From contig CM030336.1 of assembly GCA_017654855.1 (NCBI GenBank), positions 4,154,001-4,218,000 on the forward strand: a stretch of 64,000 nucleotides of DNA. Direction: 5' to 3'. Source of the stretch: Podospora anserina (lineage: Eukaryota). A model generated the notes under the pieces. That model searched no databases. It had not been told where the DNA came from and worked only from the letters and a program-made list of their open reading frames with translations. Made by a program: the position numbers and the translations under genes. This document shows positions 624 through 46,920 of this stretch, in pieces. Each line of letters begins with the position of its first letter. Within the stretch, counting starts at the first letter, position 1.

Positions 624-1719
624 TCATTTTTGCCCTCCCACAGGACCACGCATCGGCCCAGTCGTCGCAAGTTCAGTCGGCACATTATGCCCCATCCTGA
701 AAGCCGTCGAGTCAGTCGCTGACAACTCCGCCATATTCGGGCTCGGCCCCATCGGCGGGAACTGGTGATAGTAGGTAGGCGTCTGCGAGAACTCCGAGAC
801 GGTTCGGCTGTGGCCGTGCGGTTGGTATGCTTGGAATGAGTGGTGTGGATCATATGGCGAAGGTGATCCTCCAAGCCCTGCTTGCTTGGGCGGGTGACCG
901 AATCCAGGGAAGGAATTTTGCAGATAAGGAGCTGAATGCCCGTCAGCTTGGAAAACCGGAGAAGTTGGGAAGGGACGTTGACTTACTGCTCTCGGGGCTG
1001 CTGAAGGTCGAGGTCACGGTTGGCTCATAGCCGACAGGTTTGAAGGTTGGAGTTGGCTGATAGCCACCTGCCTCTGTCACGAATGGTCTGATGTGGTTTT
1101 CTTGACTCTGTCGTACATTGCGTCGCCATCTCCAGAGAAGGAAGGCAATGAGGGCGAGGAAAAGGACAGCAGCTCCTGCCGCTATGCCCCCGATTGCTGC
1201 CGGGGGAATGCCACTGTTTGAGCTTGGCGTGGTGGTTGAGAGCTCTGGTCGCGGATCAGCGCCCGTGGTTGGAGTTGGAGTGGCGGTTGGTGTGCTTTGA
1301 GTTGTCGAGGTTGGCTCAATGCTAGTGGTCGTGGGTGAAGCTCCAACGAAGATTTGGCGATTATCCGGGTCAGGACTGAGGCGGGCAGCAACAAGCCGGT
1401 CGGTCGGGCACGATCCTCTATGACATGGGTTTATCTTGCAACAACCCAAGAAGGGTGGTGTGTTGCCAGCACAGGTCCACCACAATGCGCTCGAATCCGA
1501 ACTGTCGCATTCCTGGGCTGGAAGATCGAGGTAGCTGTCCTTGGAGAAGGATGCTGGCCGAAGGTTTTCTGGGGGACACGTTCCCGGTTCTCTCTGATAC
1601 CCAGTGGTGCACGGGTTGATGGTGCAGCAGCCGATGAACTCAGTCTTCTTTCCAAGACAAACATAAAAGGTGCCACCACTGGGGCAACTCGCGCCGAGGG
1701 AAGGAGGGATGTTTGCCAT
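624..1719 (-). CDS. Cys-rich, single-pass membrane protein (N-terminal Cys-rich domain, Ser/Thr/Pro stalk, TM helix, cytoplasmic tail)
   Basis: ATG at 1719, GT-AG intron 986..932 with GCTGAC branch site, TGA at 626-624; the spliced 1041 nt is in frame. Shows repeated F(I/L)GCCxINPC motifs, an S/T/P-rich linker and a TM segment AIGGIAAGAAVLFLALIAFLLW followed by RWRR. Confidence 0.8.
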
Positions 1720-3637
1720 GTCTGAGATAGCAACGTTCAAAGATCAAAACAAAGATGAAAGGGGGGACTAACAGAGCACCAAAGTCGCACATTGTCCACG
1801 AAAGAAAAGAGGGGCGAACACAGCAGAATATCTATCCCAGACCTCATCCACTATCGTCAACCAGGCTGTAGAGCCTGCAGCTGACACGGTGAGAAAGCTA
1901 CAGTATGCACCCTTACCCGCTCTGGACATGGAGCCCTGCCAGTCAATCTCAACACCAACATCGATAGCTGCAAGCCCACCGCACACCCATTATGCAGCCG
2001 GATACTTCATAGCCACAATGTGCCATGTTCATGTTGAGCTTCATCAACTAGCTACATGACGTCAATCCCACCTTTCCTGTTGCCTCCATGAGTTGCATTG
2101 CCTCAGTGCCGACCATGTTTCGTTCCATTTATTTGTTTCATCGTCTTGAAACTCAAAGGGCACTTTTCAAGAACCACACTCTTGGGAATAATAGCACTTT
2201 CATGAGCCGGTGAGGGTCCAGACCGCTACGGCAATCTCCAATCCCCTAGCGGACGAGGCTGAATTAGCCCCTGCCCCAGCAAAGAAGAAGAAAGAGCCAC
2301 ACCAGATCCCGATAATCCCATATAAGCACTTAGACTCCAGACAGTGTCCACCCAGAGCGCCACTCTCCCTCATCATCCTAGTTGGCAAAATGAGAGGCGC
2401 GAAGAAAGAGCTAGCAGAAAGCCAAGGTTTTTGGCAATCGTATTTGACAACAGGCATCTGCAGCTCTGAATAAAAATAACAAGTGAAACATTTCTGCCTC
2501 AGTCAACCACTGGTGCCAAGTTGTGATGGGGTGCTGCAGCCGGGCGGGGTTCGCATGGTGGTGGTGGTGGTGGTGGTGGGAGACAAACAACCTGGTAAAA
2601 GATGGCGTCGGGACCAAGACAAGGCTGGCGCAAAATGGTCTGGGCATTTGAGCTTGGGTTGTCGGATGGAGTTGGTTGAGTTTGGGGGCCGGGAAGGAAG
2701 GGCGGGCCGAGGGTTTGATCCGAGTGGTCGGGTTTGAGGAGGGACGAGGGTTGTGGTACTGGCGATGAAAGTGAGGGTTTGGTGATGGTGTTGCTGCTCT
2801 GTGTTTGGTGGTGGATGTGGGTTGCGGTCTCGTTTCGACTGGAGGGATGTTGGATGCCGAGCACAAAGTCGAAAGGCATGAGAATTCTGCAGGAGCAAGA
2901 CGTGGGGATATAAGTGCCTGGTTTGGAAGACTTAGCACCAGCCGAAACAACATGGAGTAAGCTTGGGCTGTTTGGTCCAGTGGTATGGCTACGGCACCAC
3001 TTCGATCCAAACTGAGAGAGACTAGGCAACACCGTGAGCCTGAGAACCCTGGACGACGGGGACGCCCCGAGTTCAACTCCCAGCAGGTGGTCGGGTACGG
3101 AACTCATTTGCATTTTTTTTCTTCCAACACCAAACTGACATTTTGCCCTCTGCGATCCAATTTTTGATCACCATCCACCAGCTAAGCCTCCTTCCGTGAC
3201 GACTTGGGTCTTTAGGGCTCGATCGTGGTCAATGGATGGCCAAGCAGGCTTTTGACGGCAAACATCGCCTTGTCCTACGACTCTGTTTTGTATGGCAGTC
3301 AAGTTGTCTCGCCCACTGCCAATCCCAGCTTTGCACCCGAGATCAACTATATATGACTCACCACCTTCCTTCCCGGCGTGACTGGTAACCACGATTTGAA
3401 GTTCAGGATATGAGGTGTTTATGGGACTTGCCGCCGCTTGCGACGCCGGTGCCAGGAGGTAACGGTGACAGTCGCACGCCAGCTCAGCAGTCACACTGCT
3501 CGATGCATGGAACAAAGATGGAATGGGGCCGTCGTCAACTCTAGGCAATAGGACGACGACGCATCATTTCTCGGCCCAGGCATAACTACCTTGAATTGCC
3601 TACAACGGGTGGGAATCGTCCAACTTCGTCGCTATTG

Positions 3638-4636
3638 ATGATGGCCTTCACACGTGTACGCACCATGATGCTGCTGCTTCTCAGCATTAGCAGCACCGTC
3701 TGCCATGCAATACCATCTCCAAACCTCAAAATCCAGACCTATATTACGCACCATAGTGGCAATACGGATGAGGTGCTGAATGTCCCCTTGTACCGGTACG
3801 TCGTAACCCCAAAATCTCTCCGCAAATTGTTTTTTCCCACCCCAAACTGTTCCTAAGAAAGTGTCTCGCGTGCCAGGACCACAGTCACAAATGCCATGAT
3901 AGCCTCGGGGCCGAATTCCCAGTCTGCCCGAGAGAGTAACAGCAATATGTCGTGCTTCTCCCTCGGTTACGGTCTTTCAGCTCGAGACTGCGAGTACATG
4001 GCGTCAATCGGCATGTTCGACCAAGGCCGGAACGCCATCTATAACAACGGCAAGATGTGGATTGGGCGGGACGGGCCGAACACCTTCACCTTCATCAACG
4101 GTGCTGGGGTGCCGATCATTCTCGTCATGTGGTACGCTTTCAACAAGGACAACACTTCCAGTTTCATGAATATCCGCCGTCCCGAGATCACGTACTCACT
4201 CCCCGAGACCGGAAGCGCAGTCGAGATCTCTGTTGCGAATGGGGTGCCGGGGGGTTGGTCAATGATTTACAACTACTCTACTCCGCTGAGCGAGTATGGG
4301 CAGATCAGGAACACGTTCGGGGAGTTCAGCACGGGCGATTACGCCACGGTTGATGTGTCGAGGTTGGTGAATATGGCGGGAAACTCGGTGACCGTTAGAG
4401 TGTTTGGCCACCAGCCTGTCGACACCACTCTACAGCCTGTATGCGTCACTGATATGCGCACTTGCGCGTATGTGTGCACCAGCAGGAGTGTGGGATCGTG
4501 CGGAGCGACGGGGAGTTATCAGTTGGTGAACTGTGGCGGACCCAACGCGGTGGAGGGGATTGATGAACACGGGAATCCCACCGGCGGTTGTCAGGGGTGG
4601 ACGAATGGGGGGCATATCGAAGTTATTTTCCTTTGA
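3638..4636 (+). CDS. Secreted Cys-rich protein (fungal effector/allergen-like)
   Basis: Signal-peptide exon (MMLLLLSISSTVCHA) joins the 246-aa ORF in frame through intron 3796..3876 (GTACGT...CAG). Cys-rich C-terminus CVTDMRTCAYVC...GGCQG. Confidence 0.75.
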
Positions 4637-5088
4637 GTTTTGGGGATTTGGACGGGAATCGGCGGCTGTTTGTTGGGGGAAAAAAAACCAGAACGAGGGT
4701 TGAGAGTGGGGCGTTGAAAGGGAATTTTGACAATGTTTGATTTCTACTCTCATTATATTCGATACGAATAACCAGAGCCATGGACTGGGGTAACAGCCAC
4801 AGCCTGAAAATGATTGCTCATGAAAAGTGAAGGGATTCCGAAGTTGCCTTGTGGTTGGCAGTGGATCATCAGATCGCAGGGGCCTGTGGGGCGATTGATA
4901 AGCTGTGTGGCTGTTATCAGATGGTCGCACAATGCCCCACTTCGCGACCACATCATCTGGGAGCACTGACCGTCTCACCACGGCAGATTCACCGGTGATG
5001 CTTTGTTGCACCTTTCTTTCTCTTCTCTCTGAAGAAAAAGTTGCCGAATCATTGTTTCATCGCTGATTTTGGCCAAGCACACGTGAAA

Positions 5089-6200
5089 ATGAGCGACGCA
5101 AACAAAACCACCGACGTTGTGGCTCCCGCCGACGCGCCGGTAGTCGCACCGGAGCCCGTCACCGCCACGGCCCCAGCTACCGAACCCGCTGCGAAGCCGG
5201 AGGCGCCCGTCACCACCGCCATCACCTCAGCCACAGAGCCCACCGCTACCGCCACAACCACCACTGCTGCGCCTGCCGCTACAGAGACAACCGGTGATGC
5301 CAAACCTGAGACAGAACAGGAAGCCTCTCCACTCGCCCAGCTCTGGGAAGCCGCCAAGAACCATGGTCACCCTGAGATCTGGGGTGTGCCCCTTGCCGAC
5401 CCGGCCAACCACATTCCCAGCCAGATCGTTTTCCAAAAGTATCTCAACGCCAACGATGGCGACCTCGCCAAGGCCAGAGACCAGCTGATCAAGACTTTGG
5501 ACTGGCGCAAGAAGTCTGACCCGTTGGACCTGGTGCGCAGGATGTACTCCAAGTCCAAGTTTGAAGGGCTGGGGTTTGTCACCACCTATGTCGTGGACGG
5601 CAAGGAGGTTGATGAACCCGAGGAGAGAGAGATCTTCACCTGGAACATCTACGGTGGTGTGAAGAGCATTGATGAGACCTTTGGTAATCTGGAGGAGTAG
5701 GTTCCCCTGACAAGTCTCACTGCAGTAGTCAGCTAACTCGCAACAGGTTCATCAACTGGCGCGTCGCCCTCATGGAACTCGCTCTCCAAGAGCTCAACAT
5801 CTGCGGCGCCATCAAGCCCATCACCGCCGACTACGACCCCTACAAGCTCTTCCAGGTCCATGATTACAAGTCCATCTCCTTCCTCCGCTCCCCTCCTCAC
5901 GTCAAGTCTGCCAGCGCCGAGACCATCAAGGTCTTTGCGCAGAACTACCCCGAGCTGCTCAAGGAGAAGTTCTTTGTCAATGTCCCAGCTATCATGGGCT
6001 TTGTCTACGGCTTCATGAAGCTGTTTGTCGCTCCCAAGACCATCAAGAAGTTCCATCCCATGTCCAATGGCGCGAACCTGGCCAAGGAGTTTGCCGAGAG
6101 TAGGATCAAGGGGCTGGGGGAGAAGTTGCCGGCTGAGTACGGTGGTAAGGGCGGGGAGTTGAAGGCTGTGGGGAAGGAGCCTTTTTTGACGGCGGAGTAA
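5089..6200 (+). CDS. SFH5: Sec14-family (CRAL-TRIO) phosphatidylinositol transfer protein Sfh5
   Basis: Motifs HGHPEIWGV, KYLNANDGD, FTWNIYG, QVHDYKSISFLR, NYPELLKEKFFVNVP and LPAEYGG; intron 5697..5746 joins the two ORFs in frame. Confidence 0.92.
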
Positions 6201-42850: not shown

Positions 42851-43610
42851 TCTTGAGGAGGCGCGTCACTATGGCAAACAGGAGCGTTGGTCTGAACCTC
42901 CTCCTGTACGGGTGACGCAACCCGCAGAACTCTGGCCATCTTGACCGGGAGGATGACCATGCTCAACAAGCCCAATAGTAGAACCTTGCTGCTGGATCGC
43001 GCCATCTCCCTCAGAGTTGGCATCCCCGACTTATGAGAAAATGTCTTCCAAGCTGACCCCCGAGCCCTATCCAGGGTGGTCAATGAGATGAGACGGTCCC
43101 CGGCTTATCTTATAGACTGAGGCCTCAAGCCAAGTTAAAACAACGATATTTTTGCCTAAGCTAATCTAAGCCTAAATCTAGCTTAGTTTACCAGCTTGAC
43201 TTTTTATACCCTTTTTTTATCTATAGATATTAATAATAGCCTAATTCGTAGTATTAATATTTTTATCAAAGTAATTTCAAAGCCTATTAAAGGATTATAA
43301 AAGATTAAAAAGGTCCAAATAATAAAGAATTTCTATTTTTATTGCTAATTAATAATTAAATCTTCGTTTGTTGAACTTTGATTTTCCTAGATTATTATGT
43401 TTTAAATAGCATTTCTTAATGACTACTAGTAGCTATATTATTAGGCTTTTTGTAAATTACCTATTAACTTTATTCTTTTTAATGTTATACAACTTTGAAA
43501 TATTTTTAATTATGAAATATTTAACGGTATTATCCTTAAAAAGTAATATCCTCTAGAGTATAATTATTATTACCGGGATTATTACGTTTAGTATTACCGA
43601 ATTAGTAACG

Positions 43611-44009
43611 TGTGACGAACCCCTGTACAGAACCTCTGAAATGGATACTCGGTTGAAGGCTACTTCTGACAATTAGTTCGGTGCAGCTAAACAGTGCACA
43701 ACAAGATGTCTCAATGTAAACATAAGATACCGTGAATACAAGCTGTGATTGCATACTGCGGAACTATCTATCTACACCAGCCAGTTCCTCCGTATATATA
43801 GACCTTGGGACCGTGGACCATTAACTTACAGACGGTCCTCGGTCCACTCCTGATTGGCCGATACTGGACCGTGGACCGTAAGCTCCGCCGCGGTCCCCGG
43901 TCCCCATCTTATTGGTCCGTTTGCCCACCTGGACCGTGAGCCCCGCTCGATCGCGCGGTCCAGTCCTAATTAGTCCCTCGTAGCCCCACTATCTTCCAGA
44001 ACCGTAACA
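43611..44009 (-). mobile_element. 3' LTR of a Ty3/gypsy element (variant A)
   Basis: TG...CA termini, 399 bp, TATA at 43793-43800, adjacent polypurine tract; first ~196 bp homologous to 45469-45663. Confidence 0.92.
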
Positions 44010-44013
44010 TAAT

Positions 44014-44024
44014 GCTCCCTCTCC
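44014..44024 (-). other. Polypurine tract of the retrotransposon
   Basis: Minus strand GGAGAGGGAGCATTA immediately precedes the LTR start TGTTACGG. Confidence 0.75.
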
Positions 44025-44119
44025 AGGCCGAAGTCCCTGCGGCCTAATCTTCTTCCACTACTAATAATATCGTAAGTTTTTCCTCTTTACTTCTCCTACC
44101 TTTATCATGTCCTAATCGT

Positions 44120-44759
44120 ATGCAGAAACGTTATCGTAAGACTGAACAGTCTTCTTCCCTTGCCTCACGAATCCTCCGCTGTGGTTCTGCCGTGATGCCG
44201 TGCTCTACCTGTTTTACCTCCGGAATCCCTTGCATCATGGCCTCTGGGTCTTCACGATGCGCGGAGTGCGTGCGCCGTAAGATTCTATGTGACGGGTCTT
44301 ACGTTGGCTCCGCCCGTGGGTATACCTTCCTTTTCTTCCCGCACCGTAATTGACCACTCTCTAGTGACCCGAACGATGGAAGAGCAGGATAGACTCGAGC
44401 GTGAGGAGCAAGAGCTTGAAGACCAACTCTCGCAACTGACTGCCAAACTTATCCGGGTAAAACGAACACGTCGCTCCCTCCGTGCTCGCGAGGAGCGTCT
44501 TTTCGCGCGGGGTATCCAGGAGGAGGATGCCCAGGTGGCGCAGTCCGCAGCTGCGGCGCTACCTGATTCTTCACCGGGTGCTCCTGCGCGGCCGGACGCC
44601 GCCCAGGACACCGTTCCGTGGTCTCCTCACGTCTCGGACCCTTCCTTAGGCCTTGACTGGCCTTCCGACCTTTCCTTCGATCCTGATGTGGCCGGTCCTT
44701 CCTTCCTGACTCCGCAGGGTGCCGCCGGTGGCGCGCCTTCCACTTCCCAAGGTGGTTGA
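44120..44759 (+). CDS. Retrotransposon-borne antisense Zn2Cys6/coiled-coil protein (about 196 aa)
   Basis: CSTCFTSGIPCIMASGSSRCAECVRRKILC fits CX2CX6CX8CX2CX6C; intron 44316..44364 (GTGGGT...CTAG) joins it in frame to the coiled coil LEREEQELEDQLSQLTAKL; start codon uncertain. Confidence 0.85.
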
Positions 44760-44770
44760 GACGCGTGGCA

Positions 44771-45468
44771 CTACTTGTATCTGGGTCCCCTCACACCTTC
44801 CAACCTCGTAGTGTAGTGTGTAGCACGTCGACCACTACGTCGAGGGCGCAGGTTCGATTCCTGTCGAGGTTCTTTAATATCCAAGTTTATGGGCACAACC
44901 CGTGAACTTAAGTACTTATCTTTTTGTTTGGGTCGGTCTGGGTGTCGCCGGTGGAACTCTTTTAACTTGTCTGGGCAGTTGAGGTTTGCCTCTGGTTCCC
45001 ACGAATTGTCTGTAGCTGGATATCCCAATTAACAAACTAAATTTTCCAATTGGCCTCTGTTGAACCGTGAAATTAGTATTTCTTTTACATTGTATTCTTC
45101 TTCTTTGTCTTCCGCCACTATCTGCGTGTTAGCTTTGCTTGCCGGTAGTGCCGGTTCTAGAAGTAAGATATAAAAAGTATATAACTTTAGACGTATTGTA
45201 TTAGGTAGCTTTAACTCGAATACCGTCTCCGAGATCTTTTTTTTTAACCTTGAATGGGCCTACTCTCCTATAGTCCAGCTTCTTACTAAGTTGTTTAGTA
45301 CGTAAATTGCGTATAGAAAGGAATATTATGTTTCCCCCTTTAAGGCAAGGTCCCTCGAGCTTTTTACTATTATAGTATTTCTGTATTTTTTCCCTTATAA
45401 ACTTTAGTTTTTACTTAAGCTTGCCGTAAAATATATATAGCTTATTTACCTTAACCCTAGCCCTAAGT
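44771..45468 (-). pseudogene. 3' remnant of gypsy pol (integrase GPF motif plus chromodomain)
   Basis: Minus strand reads KKLDYRRVGPF...FELKLP...LLEPA...EEYNVKEIL...GYPATDNSWEPEANLNCP; AT-rich and RIP-damaged from about 45030 to 45468. Confidence 0.88.
44802..44872 (+). ncRNA. tRNA-like cloverleaf with non-canonical 6-nt anticodon loop
   Basis: Acceptor AACCTCG/CGAGGTT, D stem GTGT/GCAC, stem TCGAC/GTCGA with loop CACTAC, T arm GCAGG-TTCGATT-CCTGT; B box GGTTCGATTCC. Confidence 0.8.
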
Positions 45469-45872
45469 TGTGATGAACCCCTGTACAGAACCTCTGAAAG
45501 GAATACGGGTTGAAGGTAACTTCTGACAATTGGTTCGGTGCAGCTAAACAGTGCACAACAAGATGTCTCAATGTAAACACAAGATACCGTGAATACAATT
45601 GTGAATTGCATACTGCGGAACTGTCTAGCCACACCAGCCAGTTCCTCCGTATATATAGACCTTGATTCTCCCCGATCATGGTGATCATTCCGCTCTTCCC
45701 CAATGATCATAATGATCGCTATGATCCTTCTCTGGTTCCTTATTGGTTGTACTTCCGTGATCACTGCACTTCCCAGTCTCATTGCCCATGATCGCCCAGA
45801 CCGCCGTGACCTTGTTCTGATTGGCTGGTGACCTTGCACTGCTCCACCGTTCCCGATGTTAAGGTTGTGACA
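45469..45872 (-). mobile_element. LTR of the same family with a different U3 half (variant B)
   Basis: TG...CA termini, 404 bp; matches LTR A up to TATATAGACCTTG and is unrelated afterwards. Confidence 0.9.
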
Positions 45873-46920
45873 ATAATCTAGTGACGTAAAATAAGCTGTA
45901 ATAACTTCAAGCCAAGCGAAGGCCCTGGGCGGCAAGCCGAGACAGGATTACCTTCGGCTTGGCTTGGCTCATCTCATTGACCACCCTGGCCCTGTCCGTA
46001 ATTACTCTGTTCCCAGCCCGTAGAACCCGGGTCAGCATGTGTCTCCACCACATGCCTTTCCACCCCAACTGCACCCAGATCATTTTCTTGACCACCGGCC
46101 TCCAATGCATCTACTCCCGTCCCCATGTTGTTCACTGGTGCTTCGGTGTGATACATCGTTTTGTTCTCATGTTGATCTAGTATCACTTGTGCTGAGCGTC
46201 CTGGATTAGCAGTCTATTGTTATCCATGTACAACCATGACCAGGAACTTACACCCCTCAGCAAGTGACTGTTCTTCAATTAGACCCTGCTGTCATGTCAG
46301 ACAGGCCTGAAAGAGGTTGTGTTCATTCCAGGATGTCTCAAGACTAAGTGGGCACCCTGAGTGGGGGCAACACCAGCCTGCCATCCCATTGCCAACTGTA
46401 TTGGTAATGTGGTTATGATAGACATCTAGATTGGTCACACGGCCGCATGGAGTGGGACTACAGGCATACAGGATGGCAAAGTCCGTATTTGTGTGGCAGC
46501 TGGGACACTTGTATCGTACGTTGATATACTTTTGAGTGCCTTCGGAGTGGAAGTTAAGAGTACAAGGCGGTCGATCTCTGAGCATAGAAACCATAACAGG
46601 CTGGACAGAGGTTAAAAAACAGATGTCTTGGGACTTGCACATGGACGGGATCAAGATCAATTCCATATGAAATGACATGGTATACTGTACCACGGTAACG
46701 TAGTCTGACTTGAAAAGCGTTCTGTGTAAATCATGAACAAGTTTGCTATTTGTGGTGGGTTTGTAGGTTTGCATCATGTTTCCTTTGACGAGGACCAAAG
46801 GTGCAGTGTGGAAAGCCAAGTTTTGGTGAAGACGTTGTGAACGTGACGATCGACGTGTGATGTCAAAATAGGCTCTTGTCCATCCCTGTCTAGCCGCTTG
46901 GCAGCCACCCCTTCTTAGCT

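Follow-up and report, generated by a model that had tools for sequence, protein, structure and literature searches.

The 64,000-nucleotide (nt) stretch of the Podospora anserina genome analysed here (assembly GCA_017654855.1, contig CM030336.1, positions 4,154,001 to 4,218,000, forward strand; hereafter the window) carries at 44120–44759, on its plus strand, a gene that lies between a remnant of pol and a long terminal repeat (LTR) of the Ty3/gypsy chromovirus crapaud and runs antisense to pol. The analysis of transcript contigs and of related loci shows that this is a real, expressed, spliced and polyadenylated gene, and that it is a conserved accessory gene of an ascomycete Ty3/gypsy chromovirus lineage, which in Podospora is crapaud. 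We hold with high confidence that the gene is borne by the element, expressed and selected. The explanation that we favour as a whole, namely an element accessory gene whose product would be a zinc-cluster regulator acting at the repeat array in the U3 part of the adjoining LTR, is given somewhat less than an even chance.

An intact, spliced antisense gene had been proposed at this place in an initial annotation made from the sequence alone, and this proposal was borne out. The open reading frame (ORF) comprises 196 codons in two exons with a phase 1 junction and ends in a TGA stop, tail to tail with pol, the stops of the two being 11 nt apart; its ATG lies about 110 nt outside the U3 edge of the adjoining LTR (LTR A). 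The features of the gene and of its transcript are as follows.

44120–44315, plus strand: exon 1, with the ATG at 44120, encoding a basic N-terminus and the six-Cys cluster
44316–44364, plus strand: intron of 49 nt, GT..AG, skipped in the RNA-type runs
44365–44759, plus strand: exon 2, encoding a long helix, an acidic stretch, a DW motif and the conserved C-terminal ..SQGG, with the stop at 44757–44759
44086–45049, plus strand: antisense mRNA from RNA-type contigs, which start at 44086, 44110 and 44116 (the true 5' end is not fixed by the contigs)
44760–45049, plus strand: 3' untranslated region (UTR), antisense across the chromodomain remnant of pol
44062–44070: TATA-like TAATAATAT, near the start of the antisense mRNA

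Expression was investigated by mapping contigs on 43000–46100 at a likeness of at least 85%, using the DNA run X1 and the RNA-type runs X15, X16 and X19 (three studies). The run type, given as 'RNA?', is a guess, and the runs were taken as RNA because of the splice, of the poly(A) tail and of contigs that end in Illumina adapters; the expression evidence covers this interval apart from 43000–43519 and 45080–45391, which have no RNA-type contig cover. The splice joint from 44315 to 44365 was found in one contig each of all three RNA-type runs, with 200, 230 and 206 nt on the shorter side in X16, X19 and X15, respectively, and in none of the contigs of X1. The contig of X15 spans 44110–45049 and then continues into ten non-templated A residues, and the mRNA of the antisense gene is therefore polyadenylated, on the plus strand and antisense to pol. 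Contig depth over the gene was 72–571 in the three RNA-type runs, values that cannot rank expression.

The poly(A) site coincides with the border between intact sequence and sequence degraded by repeat-induced point mutation (RIP) at 45029–45049, within the chromodomain, and the AT-rich product of RIP may supply the polyadenylation signal there. A 21-nt loose end before 44086 in run X19 was considered as a possible upstream exon; it has no match in the window at up to three mismatches, and no AG precedes 44086. A scan of the window for promoters and terminators of bacterial type, a kind of scan not applicable to a fungus, returned no match.

Relatives inside Ty3/gypsy elements

Protein searches were made with exon 2 and with P0002, an annotated Podospora protein that is 88% identical and has the same exon junction, as queries. 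Six Podospora proteins are 71–98% identical to exon 2; P0002 and P0005 of P. pseudopauciseta are near-identical and lie on different contigs, and truncated gene models are present in three other species. By employing HMMER with P0002 against 1.84 billion cluster representatives, we found 216 matches at E ≤ 1e-3, 34 of them at E ≤ 1e-10, and among the matches listed (150 of the 216) the relatives are 72–309 amino acids (aa) long. In alignments of 28 and 96 members, each of the six cysteines is either invariant or conserved to at least 90%, and the family further conserves a proline before Cys1, CDG after Cys6, a helix of the form ..RLxRLRxQKR..ELFxRG, the DW motif and an end of the form G.....P..SQGS; the N-terminus encoded by exon 1 aligns with the N-terminal part of the family. 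The protein end, in the form G(T/S)..P..SQG(S/G/A), is conserved family-wide, also in copies such as that of the window whose gene and pol are free of overlap, and therefore belongs to the protein itself and is no by-product of coding on the other strand.

Named members are 'hypothetical' or 'Zn(2)-C6 domain' proteins of Sordariomycetes and Leotiomycetes. A protein search seeded with a Leotiomycete member gave 45 proteins, the named ones of which come from Pseudogymnoascus only, and none of the named matches is a Botrytis or Sclerotinia protein. The neighbours found in the ESM Atlas are thirty unnamed ascomycete clusters with no Pfam family. Judged by its sequences, this is an unnamed ascomycete family at the edge of the Zn2Cys6 model. 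As a repeat would lead one to expect, near-identical paralogues occur in some species, and many of its database members lie on contigs of 1–1.7 kb or 6–8.8 kb.

The setting of the relatives was examined by scanning metagenome contigs of the Joint Genome Institute (JGI) with a nine-member alignment, which returned 94 pattern matches, 18 of which encode relatives (L001–L018). Retroelement domains (gag, zinc knuckle, protease, RVT_1, RNase H, integrase, SH3_Tf2-1 and Chromo) are encoded opposite the gene in 12 of these 18 loci, and in 12 of the 13 that are longer than 1.6 kb. Five of the loci counted as misses (L004, L007, L012, L017 and L018) are at most 1.6 kb long with flanks that are too short, and the sixth, L006, has two minus-strand ORFs that look integrase-like by eye and give no Pfam match at E ≤ 0.001. 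The order is always pol, gene (antisense and tail to tail), LTR and gag, and the 3' end of the gene overlaps the end of pol in most elements, often by 20–250 nt. The initial annotation had read the gene as a component of the retroelement, and its antisense position between pol and LTR in 12 of 13 informative loci, with the same geometry, confirms this. The distances agree as well: TATATA is upstream of the ATG by 318–368 nt in 11 of the 18 loci and by 327 nt in the window, and for the LTR end GTRACA the figures are 115–178 nt in the loci with this motif and 116 nt in the window. Five contigs of 6.7–7.5 kb (L002, L008, L010, L011 and L013) are circular permutations in which the end of pol, the antisense gene, one LTR, gag and pol follow one another. 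Several contigs of 6.7–7.6 kb are whole elements with a single LTR, probably because both LTRs were collapsed into one during assembly; the alternative is that they are circles with one LTR or elements in tandem.

The best-scoring gene models place an intron at the matching codon, after CDG..V...., in 12 of the 13 loci modelled (L006, L016, L017 and L018 have no model, and L011 is the same element as L010). Ten of these 12 introns are 47–56 nt long, the models of L004 and L009 are unsure, and L002 is intronless. Because an antisense intron cannot be spliced from sense RNA, its conservation fits a gene that is copied through sense RNA, which agrees with the earlier suggestion that the antisense orientation would let the intron survive reverse transcription. 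Purifying selection in other copies, on which that annotation had also staked its reading, was found as well, with ratios of nonsynonymous to synonymous substitution (dN/dS) of 0.20–0.34 in the three pairs with unsaturated dS (L010/L007, 0.34; L013/L003, 0.20; L010/L013, 0.22), as against 0.17 for pol in L013/L003; two further gene pairs are saturated at silent sites. These ratios indicate that the antisense proteins are under purifying selection.

Against this background, we give a negligible probability to the idea that the ORF arose by chance or that a host gene came to lie among the crapaud fragments accidentally. The window does hold one copy only, and the crapaud paper of 2024 draws gag and pol only in its diagram (PMC10787394), but the splice and the poly(A) tail in the RNA-type contigs, the 216 related cluster representatives and the recurring antisense position refute both forms of this explanation.

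The crapaud fragments at this locus

The gene of the window sits in a nest of minus-strand crapaud fragments at 43100–45872, in which a complete element is not present; the two adjacent LTRs have different U3 parts. The order on the element strand is the remnant of the SH3 domain and chromodomain, the intact end of pol, the antisense gene, the polypurine tract and LTR A.

43100–43610, minus strand: AT-rich block with a GC content of 0.25, delimited by composition, beyond LTR A on the element strand
43611–44009, minus strand: LTR A, crapaud type, about 400 nt, TGTTAC...GTCACA; other copies end at 44009/44010
43611–43807 and 43808–44009: the conserved R/U5 half and the subfamily-specific U3 half of LTR A
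43793–43800: TATATATA box at the U3/R border, by direct reading
44015–44024, minus strand: polypurine tract GGAGAGGGAG, 5 nt off the LTR edge, by direct reading
44025–44045: short inverted repeat AGGCCGAAG / CTGCGGCCT, beyond the polypurine tract
44771–45028, minus strand: last 85 codons of pol, second half of the chromodomain and tail, with the stop at 44771–44773 (Pfam Chromo, E 4.2e-6, 27 bits)
45029–45468, minus strand: integrase SH3 domain and first half of the chromodomain, RIP-degraded, GC content 0.35, with stops and frame breaks
45469–45872, minus strand: LTR B, a second crapaud LTR of about 400 nt, which like LTR A reads TGT.AC...GTCACA on the element strand, with R/U5 as in LTR A and a U3 with TGATCA-type words; other copies end at 45872

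The extent of LTR A follows from the contigs of other copies, which end at 44009/44010. Comparison of the window with itself gave three related LTR pieces only (43611–43807, 45469–45664 and 32703–32906), of which the first is 92.4% identical to the second across 198 nt and 74% identical to the third; the three have the R/U5 half (element strand) in common and then diverge completely. Crapaud has been described as comprising 14 LTR subfamilies with a conserved R/U5, a subfamily-specific U3 and an LTR of about 400 nt (Westerberg et al. 2024, PMC10787394), and the three LTR types of the window match this layout. The same paper describes a pol that ends in a chromodomain and an element that is heavily RIPped (PMC10787394). 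The third LTR, at about 32500–32906, is apparently solo, has the plus strand of the window as its element strand and has no zinc-cluster gene adjoining; its U3 shows GGTACC.., GGTGAGCC/GGCTCACC words and an ATTGG box.

What the initial annotation had taken for pol beside the gene is a remnant of the last 210 or so codons, mostly RIP-degraded, and gag, protease, reverse transcriptase and RNase H are absent. The degradation of the SH3 domain and first chromodomain half, with a broken frame, covers 45029–45410 within a remnant block that reaches 45468, and the last 85 codons are open. The SH3_Tf2-1 match in this remnant (E 1.2e-4) is below the cut-off, and 45029–45468 has many similar copies in the DNA run X1, at a depth of 1,100–5,300. 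The polypurine tract had been sought in a purine run at about 44075–44100; it is instead GGAGAGGGAG on the minus strand, beside an LTR that ends at 44009, and the sequence ..GTRACA-YRAT-pyrimidine run is found at the LTR edge of other elements as well. The inverted repeat beyond it, in the form GGYCG..CGRCC, is visible at the equivalent place in L005, L007, L008, L009 and L010, and plus-strand priming or a part in the antisense promoter are its possible roles.

Beyond LTR A on the other side, the AT-rich block is probably the RIP-degraded primer-binding and leader region of the crapaud copy, an identification that is weak: the 18 nt adjoining the LTR bear a faint resemblance to a conserved junction, ..ccgaaca..aacg followed by TGT, of L002 and other elements, and 24 nt are duplicated in tandem at 43564–43611. 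A perfect 22-nt inverted repeat (43071–43092 and 45968–45989) flanks the entire nest, and 45891–45989 recurs elsewhere in the genome with 7 differences, within longer RNA-type contigs. The repeat pair may be the ends of another mobile element that crapaud entered.

Between these ruins, 43611–45028 (LTR A, the gene and its 3' UTR) has a GC content of 0.52–0.55 and is a 1.4-kb island that escaped RIP between two RIP-ruined element pieces, kept either by selection or as a sequence that is no longer a duplicated RIP target. Since the surrounding element is dead, this copy would act only in trans or for the host, and not in cis. In X1, the gene body at 44144–44455 lies under one contig with a depth of 98.8, as against 116 for the flank (at least 85% identity), and this single-copy depth means that the strain shows one copy of the gene at 85% identity or more. 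The gene was not seen in other crapaud copies of this strain, a point against the explanation we favour, and RIP divergence could hide such copies. A relic, or an exapted single-copy gene that is kept for the host or as unique sequence outside the reach of RIP, is thus a reading that we entertain as possible without expecting it. It draws on the composition of the island, on 196 codons without a stop beside a broken pol remnant, on the single-copy contig of X1 and on the contig depth in the RNA-type runs; the P0002/P0005 paralogues and the truncated models in three species look like transposon copies and not like one conserved orthologue, and a relic at this locus is in any case compatible with an accessory gene of the lineage.

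The predicted protein and the U3 repeat arrays

The cysteine pattern of the window protein, CX2CX6CX8CX2CX6C, fits the Zn2Cys6 spacing CX2CX6CX5-12CX2CX6-8C (PF00172), and the product of exon 2 comprises a heptad-rich helix, an acidic stretch, the tail LGLDWPSDLSFDPDV and a C-terminal ..STSQGG. The cluster, the long helix (predicted in P0002) and the acidic/aromatic tail that the initial annotation had named are thus all present. An AlphaFold2 model of P0002, built from 96 aligned sequences and free of metal, has a pLDDT of 94–98 over residues 1–110, the remainder being disordered; it shows short helices at residues 4–9 and 23–28 (pLDDT 95–97), at the CxxC pairs, and a long helix at 37–104. 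By comparing this model with the Protein Data Bank (PDB) using Foldseek, we obtained 25 matches at E ≤ 10, and all 18 of the matches listed are Zn2Cys6 DNA-binding domains, namely those of Ppr1, Gal4, Pho7, Leu3, Lac9, Hap1 and Put3, superposed with a root-mean-square deviation of 1.6–2.3 Å over 28–35 columns (compact alignments). A homodimer model of residues 1–110, for which the alignment was not used, scored 0.53 as against 0.31 for the best control, with a contact agreement of at least 83% between runs and a partner pLDDT of at least 77; the mark it passed was reached by 21 of 30 solved one-chain pairs and by none of 23 solved single chains. Gal4-type dimers are already among the solved structures, and the pass may therefore reflect what the predictor has learned from such relatives. 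A circularly permuted cluster made of two CX2CX6C halves, an idea that arose because Pfam aligns profile positions 12–35 only, was dropped, the alignment with Put3 and the fold search both giving the usual register for the six cysteines.

From these models we infer a small nuclear protein with a Zn2Cys6-like binuclear cluster, a pairing helix of about 68 residues and an acidic/aromatic tail, the predicted build being that of a dimeric DNA-binding regulator of the Gal4/Put3 type. That the protein is such a zinc-cluster DNA-binding regulator seems to us slightly better than an even bet. Several results weigh against it. The Pfam Zn_clus match of exon 1 is borderline (E 3.6e-4, 21 bits at a cut-off of 21, profile positions 12–35 only), that of P0002 has 16.2 bits, and only 4 of 28 family members reach the profile at E ≤ 0.01. 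In a sequence-profile search of the PDB, the best matches are coiled-coil proteins (Beclin-1, E 0.017), and Zn2Cys6 chains begin at E 0.052 with Put3, whose six cysteines are in register, with none better. None of the Foldseek matches falls at E ≤ 0.001, and those listed have E-values of 0.65–7.8. The contacts listed for the homodimer model (72-58, 79-51 and 65-65) indicate antiparallel pairing, which sets the model apart from Gal4 and Put3. In Gal4, DNA is contacted by basic residues located between Cys2 and Cys3, and the corresponding stretch in the window, CFTSGIPC, has none, with P0002 and P0007 alike; most family members do have R or K there (CF[RK][NRK]...), the lack being limited to the Podospora clade.

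The second part of the proposal concerns the U3 of LTR A, which carries the following repeats.

43808–43981: U3 array of about three 58-nt units, beside the TATA box
43808–43819/43834–43845, 43866–43877/43892–43903 and 43931–43942/43957–43966: inverted arms of unit 1 and unit 2 (12 nt) and of the decayed unit 3
43853–43857 and 43911–43915: ATTGG (CCAAT on the element strand), after the arms

The initial annotation had described three CCG/CGG-containing palindromes here. The repeats and their inverted arms are real (GGACCGTGGACC / GGTCCNCGGTCC in units 1 and 2, 14 nt apart), but they are copies of one duplicated unit, the third of which has decayed and is shifted relative to the 58-nt register. 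The word ACGGTCC occurs in 5 copies in 43800–43990. The related loci show that such repeat arrays are a real, family-wide trait: GTGATCC/GGATCAC (both strands) occurs in 2–9 copies within 100–450 nt before the ATG in 13 of the 18 loci, where 0.04 is expected, and the copies are often arranged as inverted pairs a fixed distance apart: L003 and L013 each have three of the form GGATCAC-N10-GTGATCC, L010 has two with N6, and L001 has double arms. Other words are of GTGAGC type in L002, GTGAGCA in L015 and of TGATCA type in LTR B, and all U3 words are one- or two-base variants of one core. A reading through CGG half-sites found no support, as the repeated U3 words, ACGGTCC in the window and GTGATCC in most relatives, have no CGG half-site in common and no constant CGG or CCG triplet. 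The array of the window lies between two diverging starts, those of the element (TATA box) and of the antisense gene, in a layout that resembles a shared upstream activating region.

In the mechanism that we propose, the U3 array, placed between the TATA box for the genomic RNA and the start of the antisense gene, would be where, or close to where, the antisense protein acts, and the protein would thereby couple its own expression to that of the element, by activation or repression. We infer that a protein acting at its own LTR is the most economical mechanism; that the protein actually binds its own U3 array is nonetheless a doubtful proposition, which we keep at this level because the cluster does not track the U3 word and because crapaud internal regions show little association with LTR subfamilies. 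Co-variation of cluster and linker with the type of U3 was a test that the initial annotation had proposed, and a comparison of 14 elements gave no such signal: the clusters of L015 and L013 are 85% identical and their U3 words differ, elements that have GTGATCC in common go down to 53% in cluster identity, and arm spacing does not follow which of the two linker lengths an element has. Cluster (44–59%) and word are both at their most divergent in the window, which is a single case. In Podospora, little association between crapaud internal regions and LTR subfamilies has been described (PMC10787394), and the comparative data as a whole lean against the specificity for an LTR subtype that had been suggested. 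The absence of a constant CGG or CCG triplet counts against the explanation that we favour.

These same results bear on the alternative in which a conserved host transcription factor reads the U3 arrays and the zinc-cluster protein works elsewhere, at host promoters, in anti-silencing or by pairing with, or competing against, a host zinc-cluster factor through its coiled coil. We regard this, too, as doubtful, and a host factor and the antisense protein as about equally likely readers of the arrays. The word GTGATCC, which lacks a CGG triplet, is kept where clusters are 53–56% identical and changed where they are 85% identical; the same U3 also has CCAAT boxes, a sign of host factors; and the uncoupling of LTR subfamilies from internal regions in Podospora (PMC10787394) speaks for a host reader and against the element's own. 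On the other hand, the U3 words differ by one or two bases only, so one reader of any origin fits them, and the fixed place of the gene beside U3 in every element suggests a functional link.

A further alternative, which we consider improbable, is that the protein serves retrotransposition directly, through nucleic-acid binding in the particle, guidance of integration or a limit on copy number. Purifying selection comparable to that on pol and the overlap of the gene's 3' end with the end of pol in most elements would suit such a role, as would a Zn2Cys6 domain in the centromere-binding Cep3 (weak PDB profile matches) together with the enrichment of crapaud in centromeric regions (10.64898/2025.12.02.690432). 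The acidic/aromatic tail and the basic N-terminus are instead typical of nuclear activators, and no similarity of the antisense protein to gag, nucleocapsid or integrase-binding modules was found.

The strongest form of our favoured explanation, in which the chromovirus lineage carries its own factor and operator, with a dimer on the inverted-repeat arrays of U3 forming a feedback switch, is unlikely on present evidence. The allocation of operators that it implies, of GTGATCC type in most elements and ACGGTCC type in this crapaud subfamily, is unlikely in the same degree; if it were true, the 14 crapaud U3 subfamilies would partly reflect changes of operator. The centres of the arms in the window array (43808–43903) are 26 bp apart, and an antiparallel dimer as modelled would space its clusters roughly alike, a speculative match that may be coincidence.

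Comparison with known systems

An antisense extra gene of a fungal retrotransposon, brtn, was reportedly described by Zhao et al. in 2011, in Virology 417:248. According to passages that cite this work, brtn lies between pol and the 3' LTR of Boty in Botrytis cinerea (PMC8365987, PMC7264820, PMC4227169), and the novelty that the initial annotation had claimed was therefore overrated, an antisense gene at this place of a fungal chromovirus being already in print. The likeness is close, both being extra genes between pol and the 3' LTR of a fungal chromodomain Ty3/gypsy element and antisense to gag-pol. A zinc cluster, a Pezizomycotina-wide spread and U3 arrays do not figure in those citing passages (PMC8365987, PMC7264820, PMC4227169). 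The comparison between brtn and the window family is one of descriptions, not of sequences.

We know of no sequence relation between the window family and the antisense ORFs of plant Ty3/gypsy elements. These ORFs, likewise between pol and the 3' LTR, occur in Grande1, RIRE2, Retand and PvRetro13, are conserved within families and have a function stated as unknown (PMC7264820). They resemble the window gene in position and orientation and differ from it in belonging to non-chromovirus lineages, and a zinc-cluster domain is not among the features reported for them in the pertinent part of that review (PMC7264820). The window gene fits this class of antisense additional ORFs, lying between pol and LTR on the opposite strand and being transcribed.

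With Gal4, Put3, Ppr1, Leu3 and Hap1 the window protein would have in common the spacing of the six cysteines, the modelled fold of the cluster, an acidic tail and, after a linker, a predicted pairing helix. It differs from them in its length of about 196 aa, the lack of a middle homology region, a Pfam score at or below threshold and its place in a retrotransposon, as well as in the antiparallel pairing of the model and the lack of basic residues after Cys2.

A spliced antisense gene is also known from human T-cell leukaemia virus type 1 (HTLV-1), whose HBZ starts from the 3' LTR and encodes a leucine-zipper factor that modulates transcription from the 5' LTR. The window gene is comparable in being antisense and spliced, in starting beside the 3' LTR and in the predicted build of a transcription factor; HBZ belongs to a human retrovirus, has a basic leucine zipper and not a zinc cluster, and is unrelated in sequence, so that the parallel is an analogy only.

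Crapaud itself is drawn with two ORFs in its published diagram (PMC10787394), and the window gene is an apparent third; the words 'zinc' and 'antisense' do not occur in the text of that paper (PMC10787394). In open-access papers and bioRxiv, we found no report of a fungal retrotransposon that carries a zinc-cluster gene.

The best-studied retrotransposon of Podospora would thus have a gene beyond its published description, and hundreds of small 'hypothetical' or 'Zn(2)-C6 domain' ascomycete proteins would be transposon genes, which bears on gene counts and transcription-factor censuses in genomes and metatranscriptomes. What antisense extra ORFs do has been a standing question at least since brtn was reported in 2011, in plants too, and the predicted DNA-binding build, the conserved intron and the adjoining array of candidate sites make the function of such an ORF testable in a tractable fungus. 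If the protein does read its own U3, these elements would offer compact natural pairs of factor and operator and a mechanism for the diversification of LTR subfamilies. The window gene joins the known antisense extra ORFs of LTR retrotransposons, and a molecular identity is what it adds to them.

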